Source: a virus
Taxonomy: Duplodnaviria; Heunggongvirae; Uroviricota; Caudoviricetes
Direction: 5' to 3' (one strand)
DNA: 38,874 bases
IMG/VR virus record: IMGVR_UViG_637000107_000014
This document shows positions 36,001 through 38,874 of the stretch, in pieces. Every line of letters begins with the position of its first letter. Position 1 is the first letter of the stretch. Made by a program: the position numbers.

Positions 36001-38874
36001 TTCTTCTGGGTCCAGCGGTTCGAATACACCTCCCCCATAAGTTCCCACAGCTTCCAGGCCGTTTCCGTTGCTGATAAATCCGTTTTCACGTTCCCACTGT
36101 TCACGTGCTGCCCGAATTTCCTGAACTGCCCGTGATGCGGTGCCACCTGGTGCTGCATGGCTTACCCCCTTGCTGACTGGTTTTACCTGTGCCCTGACGT
36201 GCTGCACGTGACGGGCAAATTTCTGCTCCCACTGAACCTGCGTGAAAACCTTCCCCTCCGCCATCCAGTAATCCCGGAATGCGGCAAGCTCAGCAGGTGT
36301 AAACTCAGGCTCAGGCAGAGCCATACCCCACACTGCTGCCCGCTGTCGAAAATCCGGCGACGGTTGCCAGACTCCAGTCATCGGAAATTTCCCGATCGGT
36401 TCGCTCAGGCCGTCCAGGTATTCAGGTTCGGCTGTCTGCAACGACGCGTCATTCAACTCACCGGTCGTAGCACTCTCGCGCATGCGCGCGTTATGTGTGG
36501 GGTTTAATTCTTTATCTGTATCTGTATCTGTCGTGATTTGTCGTGACATATGCGTGACGCGTCGTGACTCATCGTGACAATCAGTGTTCTGCTTCCGCAG
36601 TCTTTCCCGCTCCCGCTGCGCTCTCTTGCGCTCTGCCGGGGATTTTGCGGTTTGCGAAACATTACCGTTATCCTCCTTCATCACCTGGCGTTTTTCCCAT
36701 CCGGAAATAAGATCACCATCCAGAACTCGCCCCTGCATTGCATGCAAAATTGAATCAATCACGTCTTCCGTCACATCAAGCGCACTTGCTAAATCTTCCG
36801 TCGTGACATCAATGTGACCACGTAGTGACACGCCGTGACATGTCGTGACATTTCGTGACGCACTCACCAGAAGGTGGATATACACCGCCATCACTGTTGC
36901 GATTGGCTGTCCTGAGACCCTGGCAATGGTTCGCCATTTGGGATCATTTGGCATGTCATGCCACAATCTGAGCCAGGCATTAGCCATACTCACCTCATCT
37001 GATACCGAACTTTACCCTCGAACATCCGGAAGAAATCCGGCATGAATATTGTTGGTCAATGCACGACAACAGCATTACCAGGCTGACCACCACTGTTAGT
37101 CAGGGTGCCCCAGGCGATCGCCGCTGCGACAAAATCATCCACATCTTTCACCAGCCGATCCCTCCGTTCGACGATCTCACGGTAATATTCAGAGCTGTGA
37201 CTGCGCATACGGGCCACCAGCAGAGGCGGCATTGCCTTTTCGATCGCCGGTAACAGAGCCTGAATTTTTTCAACAGCATCAGGGGTGTCTTTATCCAGCC
37301 AACGGAAAATTTTCTGGGTATTACGAGCCAGGGCTTCCGGATGGCTGTCGTCGTACAGTTCCGGGAACGTCATCCCCAGCTCGAAATAAGTCCGGGCTAT
37401 TTCAGCTGCAGGAACTTTCTCACCGTCCGGATAGGCCCAGGCATTGATCGCCATGCGGATGTGCTCATGTTTGATTTTCATGAATCCCCCTTTCCTTCGC
37501 CCTGAGTGGTATCCTTCTTTTTGTAAAGTTCTGGGTTCAAAGATAATTTCCCCTTGGAGTATGCAGCAGCTTCCGCAGCCCTCCCCTTCGGAACTATTTC
37601 ACCAGGACGCTTACGCCACATGTAAATAGCTTCGCGGGTTATCCCATAAAAATCGGCAACCCTCTGAACAGAACCAAAAAACTGGACAAGTTCATCAACT
37701 CGCATTTTACCTCCCAAATCTAAGTATTTTTAGATTACAAGATAATTTTTTTTAGGTCAATGCAATCTAAAATAATTTATATTCAATTTGCAGGAGAAAA
37801 TGATGGAAAGCCTTGGCTTCAGGCTTAAGAGACTTAGAAAAGATAAGGGGCTGACCCAAGTAGAACTGGGTAAGCTTTCAGGCGTGACTGGGGTTACTAT
37901 AGGGTACTGGGAGAAAGATCTAAACGAACCAGGTAGCAAAGCTCTAAGTAAGTTAGCCCAGGCATTAGGAACTACTGAGTCCTATCTCCTATATGGAGTA
38001 TCGTCTCCTGAATTATCTTTTGTACAAAGTACCTCAGGCACCAAGATCCCCTACCTTTCGTGGGGTGAGGCGATTTCTTTCCTAATCTTAAAAGGAGAGA
38101 AAACAATGGGAAATGTCGATAGAATCACCACATTCTTTGATGTCGAGGAAGGTGATTTTGCCGTTTCAATGCCTGATGACACAATGCATAACCCATCAGG
38201 ATCACCGAGTATCCCAGTTGGTGCTACTGTGATCCTAAGGCCAGGAGAAAGTTATAAAAATGGCAGCATCGTCGCTGTAATAGTTCCGGATCCGCTTAAA
38301 AATGAACCATCTATGACTATAAAGAAATTAGTTATTGATGGGAAGCTTGTGTATTTAAGCCCTCTCAATCCACGCTATCAGTCATCCTAACTAACACCAG
38401 AGTGTAAAATTGTTGCCGTAGCAAAAGGTGTACAGTTCAACTTATAACCCGCCACGTCCTTTACTTGAGGTCGGCAATGCCGACCTTTTTTTTAAATTAA
38501 TCTAGATTTACCTTGACTGAAAAACTAAATACTTTTAGATTTATTACATACCACCCTACCTCGCCCCACAGAACGTCGGGCAATACCTCGAGTTACCCGG
38601 CAGTGGTCAGGGGTTAAGTAGCCAGCCCGAGGCGTATGAACATGACGGCGGGAACACTTTGTATAACAGCGCAGCAGGTTTTTAGTTCCGCGACCCGGCG
38701 TTAAGGGTAAATGAGGTCAACATGGATATGCTCAATCTTGGCAACAATGAATCTCTGGTGTGCGGAGTATTCCCCAACCACGACGGCACGTTTACCGCGA
38801 TGACGTATACCAGAAGTAAAACGTTTAAAACNGAAGCTGGCGCGCNTCGCTGGTTAGCAAGAAACGCTAACTGA

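Follow-up and report, generated by a model that had tools for sequence, protein, structure and literature searches.

The IMG/VR virus record IMGVR_UViG_637000107_000014 (Caudoviricetes; 38,874 nucleotides, called the window below, by which we mean this whole stretch of DNA) is 100% identical to an Escherichia coli O157:H7 prophage. We found that its replication initiator gene carries two arrays of short direct repeats, and that both arrays are under selection at the DNA level. Array A is written over codons of the N-terminal domain, and array B lies in the codons of a linker and is directly followed by an AT-rich purine tract. Judged from their sequences in the window and its relatives, both arrays are very probably cis-acting sites for the initiator, and array B together with the tract probably forms an origin core. 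The reading as a whole, which we consider fairly probable, is that the origin is written into its own initiator gene, with array B and the tract as its core and array A as a cooperative accessory array.

Two repeat arrays conserved at the DNA level

Array B contains exact GTGAC on the plus strand at 36543, 36554, 36564 and 36574 (spacing 11, 10 and 10 bp) and one degenerate unit, GTGAT, at 36533 (ATCAC on the coding strand, 36533–36537). Array A contains GTGAC at 36803, 36814, 36825, 36835, 36845 and 36855 (spacing 11, 11, 10, 10 and 10 bp). All units of both arrays have the same orientation; their core on the coding strand is GTCACG, and the commonest form in the window is GTCACGAC. An earlier reading of this DNA from the sequence alone (the original prediction) had reported a cluster 1 of four to five GTGAC repeats with a period of 10–11 bp at 36543–36578 and a cluster 2 of six repeats at 36803–36859. 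These correspond to arrays B and A, respectively, and both descriptions were correct: cluster 1 has four exact units and one degenerate unit, and all six units of cluster 2 are present at a spacing of 10–11 bp. Tandem Repeats Finder also reported period-10 arrays at 36541–36578 and 36825–36859. Such a density is not expected by chance. In the window, up to six copies of GTGAC fall on the same strand within 60 bp, and in 300 first-order Markov simulations of the window this maximum was two in 269 runs, three in 23, one in seven and four in a single run. Outside the initiator gene, matches to the 8-mer motif with at most one mismatch were only scattered singly across the 38.9 kb, and thus a distant second origin like oriR of SPP1 is absent from this stretch. 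Two copies of GTGAC lie 11 bp apart in a DUF1627 gene (34945–34960, plus strand), in the array orientation and about 1.6 kb from array B; they may be there by chance.

Homologues were collected from Escherichia phage Evi, Pseudomonas phage phita81A and Aeromonas phage pAEv1818, from one genome per species (47 loci) and from IMG/VR (80 matches per scan, of more than 1000 matches). A motif scan of related phages, the check proposed with the original prediction, found both arrays at the same two gene positions in Enterobacterales including Escherichia, in Pseudomonas, Aeromonas, Bordetella, Chromobacterium, Aquitalea and Acidovorax, and in others. In the relatives, the spacing between units is 10 or 11 bp in 68 of 78 intervals in array A and in 65 of 68 in array B.

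We then compared codon usage in array A among 23 non-redundant genes with a mean nucleotide identity of 70%. The array A codons are fixed: GCG in 21/23 genes, TCA in 22/23, AAT in 19/20, GTC in 23/23, ACG in 23/23 and GGT in 23/23, followed by CAC in 22/22, GTC in 23/23 and ACG in 22/23. At conserved residues outside array A, the fraction of the top codon is 0.25–0.65 in the same genes. Furthermore, the units are read in all three frames (2, 0, 1, 2, 1, 0 in array A and 1, 2, 0, 2, 0 in array B), so that one DNA core is read as V-T, S-R or G/C-H by frame. In the otherwise variable linker, the invariant residues H138, S141, R142, V144 and T145 are exactly those spelled by the core. The original prediction had taken repeats that are not kept at the DNA level in homologues as a sign of coding constraint only; the opposite was found, as the synonymous codons of array A are frozen. 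Coding constraint alone is ruled out because synonymous sites are frozen, all three frames are used and a switch between GTA and GTC, described below, is silent. Thus, DNA-level selection is shown directly by the frozen synonymous codons for array A, and by covariation with array A, the three frames and the motif-spelled invariant residues for array B. The arrays change length in whole units. Indels occur in steps of 21 bp, equal to seven amino acids or two units, and among near-identical prophages the copy number is 5–6 in array A, 3–6 in array B and 2–9 for the hexamers. Array A has six units in the window and in E. albertii and four in most others, and the two additional units of the window account for 21 bp and seven amino acids (TCHGVSL).

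That the two arrays change together was revealed by a census of 67 genes, from which redundancy had been removed at 90% identity. Both arrays with a shared core were present in 58 of the 67 genes: the core is CGAACG in 28, GTCACG in 24, GTAACG in five and GTGACG in one. More distant homologues have no GTCACG, but have another core at the same two places, again equal in both arrays. The clearest case is a sister trio with about 67–69% protein identity, in which the Pantoea and Enterobacter members (L105 and L107) have GTAACG and the Erwinia member (L106) has GTCACG. The C/A difference between them is found at every orthologous unit of both arrays; it is silent in Val codons (GTA/GTC) and gives Asn (AAC) versus His (CAC) in another frame. 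This pattern would be expected for two sets of binding sites of one protein whose specificity has shifted several times. A single extra copy between array A and array B (Table 1) may be either an inverted core or a direct unit with one mismatch (GATGTGACG vs GATGTCACG). Its Val codon is GTG in 20/20 diverged genes, and most loci of the GTCACG class have a counterpart at the same relative position (~192).

The remaining nine genes lack one or both arrays. Two of the 67 (L174 and L155) have array B only, and both keep the tract. The seven without arrays are one low-GC clade, two genes with fusions of the N-domain and one beta-proteobacterial lineage. In the low-GC loci of the Entomomonas/Ventosimonas type (L112, L114, L121 and L176), array A is wholly lost and the hairpin sequence is SEERG...; their (GATAAA)n tract is long, with up to ten copies, and the linker contains one or two units resembling CGAACG. 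In the two fusion genes, from a Serratia metagenome-assembled genome (L122) and Pantoea (L130), the N-domain is joined to another C-terminal domain with a weak MUG113/GIY-YIG-like match (YVYYV...GIS.NPW.R). These two genes lack both arrays, but CTACGTA/TAGTA repeats are dense in the part that codes for the fused domain, about 300–480 nt into the gene.

One locus also suggests exchange between the arrays. In L119, arrays A and B have a 31-nt block in common, which suggests gene conversion between them. This block, GAACGACYGGTAACGCAGGTGTAACGCARGG, is present in both arrays in L119 and in L167, which are of the Sphingomonas type, and array A of L119 is a mixture of GTAACGC and CGAACGC units.

The AT-rich tract is conserved together with array B. 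GC content is 0.325 at 36500–36539 against ~0.5–0.6 around it, and over the first 700 nt of the gene the 30-bp stretch with the lowest GC (0.27) is just past the last unit of array B. Tandem Repeats Finder reported TCTGTA x3.8 at 36509–36531. In relatives, purine repeats of the AGATA[AC]AGATA type directly follow the last array B unit. In 35 of 41 loci, GC content over the gene's first 700 nt is lowest in this tract, whose mean GC is 0.25 against a locus mean of 0.55. The tract is kept even in hosts of 60–70% GC, and its reading frame differs between relatives (DKDK or DTDT versus QIREEEI). The tract is a DNA-level feature, because it is kept whatever the GC content of the host and is read in two frames. 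It is the presumed DNA unwinding element. The original prediction had seen an atctgt x3 tandem and AT-rich DNA beside cluster 1 and proposed that cluster 1 and this DNA resemble an origin inside the initiator gene; the tandem and the GC minimum of the gene were found there, and the conservation of the arrays and the tract at the DNA level supports the proposed origin. DNA between arrays A and B has a GC content of 0.40–0.70, and the AT-rich tract is not between them but on the far side of array B. An origin of the SaPI type, in which the AT-rich region lies between two iteron sets, was ruled out on these grounds. Directly past the tract, on the side of the C-terminal module, is a G+C-rich palindrome at 36474–36502 (CGCGCATGCGCGCG; a longer imperfect stem is TCTCGCGCATGCGCGCGTTATGTGTGGGG). 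A related sequence, GCGCGCGCGTGCGCG, is found at the matching position in ydaU of Rac-SA53. In ori-lambda, too, a palindrome lies on the right side of the AT-rich region.

The initiator protein and its gene neighbourhood

Coordinates of the features are collected in Table 1. The RefSeq start of the initiator is ATG at 36987, and the product is annotated as WP_001262409.1, 'DnaT-like ssDNA-binding domain-containing protein'. From the N- to the C-terminus, the protein consists of a putative DnaD-like winged-helix domain, a basic helix, a disordered linker and a DnaT-like C-terminal domain. The sole Pfam match of the initiator was DnaT (PF17948) in the C-terminal half, and there was no Phage_rep_O, Phage_rep_org_N, RepA_N or Phg_2220_C match in Pfam. 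PHROGs call it a replication initiation protein, and matches to 'replisome organizer' and 'DnaD-like helicase loader' are weak (E 2e-8 to 9e-4). The protein was rejected as a full-length equivalent of E. coli DnaT, since its score of 93 bits for NCBIfam PRK02854 is below the cut-off (201) and the match is confined to the C-terminal domain.

Table 1. Features of the initiator region in the window (aa, amino acids; AF2, AlphaFold2)
Feature	Coordinates	Strand	Description
Replication initiator gene	35950–36987	-	345 aa from ATG at 36987; in-frame GTG at 36993; open reading frame 35950–36993
Array A	36800–36863	-	Six direct units, core GTCAC(G), 10–11 bp apart; codes for aa 43–62
Extra single copy	36770–36774	-	Coding-strand GTGAC (plus strand GTCAC); codons D-V-T of 'ALDVTE'
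Basic helix codons	36586–36639	-	aa 117–134, AERKRAQRERERLRKQ; between winged-helix domain and array B; AF2 helix
Array B	36531–36582	-	Four exact units and one degenerate unit, core GTCACG, 10–11 bp apart; linker at ~aa 136–153, CHDESRRVTHMSRQITT
AT-rich purine tract	36500–36531	-	Coding strand (ACAGAT)3, AAAGAATTAAA; codes for TDTDTDKEL; directly 3' of array B
DnaT-like ssDNA-binding domain	36187–36387	-	Pfam PF17948; belongs to exchangeable C-terminal module
Lambda-P-like helicase loader gene	35496–35957	-	Overlaps initiator stop; Pfam PF06992 Phage_lambda_P, E=3.4e-16; RefSeq 'replication protein P'

We modelled residues 1–160 with AlphaFold2 using a 63-sequence alignment (core pLDDT, the per-residue confidence, ~90). 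The model has three helices, a low-confidence beta-hairpin (aa 47–56), a winged helix-turn-helix, a basic helix (aa 117–134) and a disordered tail (aa 135–160, pLDDT <50). The closest folds to the modelled N-domain are the N-terminal domain (NTD) of DnaD and the iteron-binding NTD of plasmid RepA. In this model, the codons of array A correspond to the end of helix 3 and the low-confidence beta-hairpin, which precede the helix-turn-helix. Both arrays sit in structurally tolerant codons, those of a low-pLDDT hairpin and a disordered linker.

Which part of the protein would read the core can be approached from residues that follow the iteron class. Outside the codons of the arrays, such residues cluster at aa 107–124 in the region of the basic helix; iteron class and clade are confounded, and therefore no specificity is claimed for this segment. 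The basic helix (aa 117–134), which is conserved, is a candidate DNA-contacting or specificity segment, which we give as a lead only. The strongest class-discriminating residue of the N-domain is itself encoded by an array: at position 58, genes of the GTCACG class have His, those of the CGAACG class Arg and those of the GTAACG class Ser or Asn. This raises the idea that the initiator gene is a self-referential specificity cassette, with array A serving both as binding sites and as codons of a beta-hairpin in the DNA-binding domain, an idea that we consider unlikely. If the hairpin contacts the iteron core, the same mutations would alter the site and the reading head, and conversion between arrays A and B would spread the change. 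Such a cassette, if true, would allow new origin specificities and new groups of replication incompatibility to arise through a single locus.

The initiator gene is modular. The arrays stay with the N-domain, and the C-domain varies among relatives: it is DnaT-like in the window and pAEv1818, Phg_2220_C in P0081, and of no assigned type in Evi and phita81A. The gene downstream of the initiator also varies, encoding a P-like protein, a DnaB-like helicase or a primase-helicase. Across its DnaT-like part and tract, the window gene has ~89% DNA identity to Rac-SA53 ydaU, and this identity ends at 36529, where array B starts. This shows modular exchange at the junction of array B and the tract. Lambdoid O genes are alike in this respect, as the N-domain and iterons are one module and the C-domain and P are the other. 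Rac YdaU has a DUF1376 N-domain with the same DnaT-like C-module and the same DTDTD/KELNPTH tract; Rac-type YdaU has no GTCACG arrays and no evident second array. Thus, the two-array layout belongs to the N-domain family and not to the C-module. In ydaU of Escherichia phage Rac-SA53 (L132, locus 2160–2200), we found that the tract is closely preceded by an inverted pair, TGTTCAAACA ... TGTTTGAACA. The TGTTCAAACA/TGTTTGAACA pair may be a binding site of a different origin specificity and is possibly relevant to the Rac origin oriJ.

Upstream of the initiator are Cro-like and YdaT/CII-like genes and a divergent gene for a LexA/CI-type repressor. A terminator scan of 35800–37900 gave four terminator-like matches, all on the non-coding strand, three of which derive from the palindrome at 36474–36502. 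Elsewhere in the prophage, we observed an ALIL pseudoknot of Rfam at 17059–17175 on the plus strand (118 bits), which is the frameshift signal of an IS3-family transposase and thus indicates an insertion sequence within the prophage. On the minus strand are the sok antitoxin RNA of a hok/sok-type module (32518–32692, 115 bits), the small RNA STnc100 (28410–28582, 101 bits) and a cluster of three tRNA genes (29356–29602). The last open reading frame of the window (38722–38874) translates with X residues, indicating ambiguous bases near the window end.

A model of the proposed origin and its alternatives

In the reading that we favour, each iteron unit would have the 6-bp core GTCACG, placed once per helical turn in a single orientation, and N-domains of the initiator would fill array B on one face of the DNA. 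The DnaD winged-helix domain oligomerises. The tract beside array B would then melt, and the DnaT-like C-domain and the neighbouring P-like protein would bring in the host DnaB helicase. Array A, ~230 bp upstream of array B, would bind the same initiator and raise its local occupancy, and a protein-protein bridge to array B, looping out the 230 bp, would aid opening of the tract. Binding by the initiator, melting of the tract, recruitment of the helicase and the sign of the effect of array A are what we infer; for the binding of the initiator to the repeats in its own gene, it is the co-inheritance of the N-domain with the arrays and their covariation that point to it. The original prediction had proposed for cluster 2 either a bipartite origin or a second regulatory binding array, and either may apply. 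The finding of the same core in both arrays in 58/67 genes fits two sets of sites for one protein, and natural loss argues that array A is accessory, because it is missing from L174 and L155, both of which retain array B and the tract. That array A acts positively is a tentative part of the proposal.

Several observations weigh against this reading. The putative recognition helix (aa 74–84, EDVIDSILHAM) is acidic and hydrophobic, which is atypical of a helix that reads DNA. The AT-rich tract is short (~30–40 bp). Gene conversion between the arrays could help their covariation; this explains why the arrays are alike, but not why both are kept. Furthermore, the distance between the arrays is not helically phased, as it ranges from 188 to 319 bp in the relatives with modes at 227 and 229 bp. 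This distance is set mainly by the encoded protein, so that a looping geometry is not obviously conserved, and we dropped a looping geometry of fixed phase as a claim because of this spread.

Array A might instead exert negative control, by titrating the initiator, by handcuffing with array B or with a sister copy, or by being a roadblock for transcripts that run from the early right promoter into the initiator and loader genes, and this would limit initiator synthesis and re-initiation. In iteron plasmids, second iteron sets (incA of P1 and incC of F) control copy number; they are intergenic and their negative role is proven. Array A resembles them in being a second array of the same iteron outside a minimal origin, its dispensability being seen here in natural loss (L174 and L155, which keep array B alone), and differs in lying inside a coding sequence. 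It shares the repeat core of array B and yet sits outside the unit of array and tract, within the transcript of the initiator itself it is in the 5' part and precedes the P-like gene, and its copy number varies (six vs four), as would be expected of a dosage-type element. On the other hand, a lytic or induced phage gains little by restraining its replication. A simple scan of 35800–37900 found no sigma-70-like promoter, so that an operator or promoter overlapping array A is without support. Sequence does not tell a negative from a positive effect, and we regard negative control as doubtful, although only slightly less likely than a cooperative role of array A.

Two further readings are weaker. 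Array A could be a fork or polarity barrier, stopping the fork that moves toward the immunity region and giving unidirectional replication or a switch from theta to rolling-circle replication. All units of arrays A and B point in one direction, as they would in a polar barrier. In SPP1, G38P binds two sites, and stalling at the second has been proposed as the trigger of the switch (PMC6316719); the relative P0081 shares the C-terminal family Phg_2220_C with G38P (G38P family: PMC5737612). However, in SPP1 ~13 kb separate oriR from oriL, and oriR comes with an AT-rich element of its own, whereas array A is 230 bp from array B and has none, and this reading is quite improbable. Even less probable, to the point of being hardly credible, is that the repeats serve a factor other than the initiator (a host protein, a phage regulator or an mRNA signal) or are a by-product of a peptide repeat or slippage with no cis function. 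Slippage is clear, as copy numbers differ among near-identical prophages. Yet the three observations that rule out coding constraint also exclude a peptide repeat. Another regulator is disfavoured because the neighbouring regulators and loaders differ among Evi, phita81A, pAEv1818 and the window, while the arrays stay with the N-domain. The period of 10–11 bp and the adjoining AT-rich tract fit recognition of duplex DNA and not an RNA signal, and gamma- and beta-proteobacterial hosts with four different cores speak against a single host factor.

Relation to known origins

Origins inside initiator genes are known (lambda O, SPP1 G38P and pSK41 Rep), and they have been described with a single array in a dispensable linker. 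What is unusual here is a conserved and co-evolving second array inside the gene, together with four natural specificity classes. In the literature on this family, its motif and bipartite phage origins in initiator genes, we found no description of arrays in this initiator family and no case of an initiator gene in which a second array overlies the codons for the DNA-binding domain. This family is very common, in Pseudomonas, Aeromonas, Bordetella and many other phages as well as in E. coli, where a 521-bp query from the window was matched in 690 of 5426 complete genomes. It provides a natural case of a cis element that dictates protein sequence, since the motif spells the invariant residues of both hairpin and linker. 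With at least four specificities switched in nature, and with sister genes one base apart per unit, the family also offers material for studying how DnaD-like domains read DNA. The arrays raise the testable question of what a second intragenic array does in a phage origin, and they may give a practical rule for locating origins and judging replication compatibility among lambdoid prophages of O157 and other pathogens.

The closest functional parallel is lambda. Ori-lambda has four iterons and a 39-bp high-AT region, and the O protein binds DNA through its N-terminal part and P through its C-terminal part, with a flexible linker between them (PMC6022878). As in lambda O, the repeats of array B lie between the codons of the DNA-binding and loader-binding domains, in the linker. 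As in lambda, the AT-rich region comes directly after the repeats in the direction of the gene (GC 0.27–0.33 at 36500–36539), the gene for a P-type loader is next (the PF06992 match directly downstream), and the linker encoded by the origin tolerates in-frame indels (PMC6022878). In contrast, lambda has one array of four 18–19 bp inverted-repeat iterons, each bound by an O dimer, whereas the family described here has 6-bp direct cores every 10–11 bp, four to six units per array and two arrays. The original prediction had called the gene O-like, with an origin as in lambda. This stands for analogy and not for homology, because the initiator has no Phage_rep_O match, a putative DnaD-like N-domain, a DnaT-like C-domain and direct 6-bp cores.

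In SPP1, the repeats and the DNA unwinding element of oriL lie inside gene 38 (PMC5737612, PMC6316719). G38P is alike in having direct repeats together with an unwinding element rich in AT in the organiser gene, in binding a second repeat set with the same protein and in lacking an AAA+ domain. It differs in that the second site, oriR, is intergenic; in the window, codons of the N-domain hold the second array, and the protein has a DnaT-like C-domain and not Phg_2220_C. In pSK41, Rep boxes are located centrally in rep, the linker that they encode is dispensable and the NTD is DnaD-like (PMC5703833). pSK41 is a Gram-positive plasmid, whereas the present family belongs to Gram-negative phages, and the window protein has no RepA_N match in Pfam; no second array inside the codons of the NTD is described for pSK41 (PMC5703833). 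In summary, the initiator and its arrays would work like lambda O and ori-lambda without belonging to that family, and the model of the N-domain places the protein structurally beside DnaD-like replisome organisers and RepA_N initiators.

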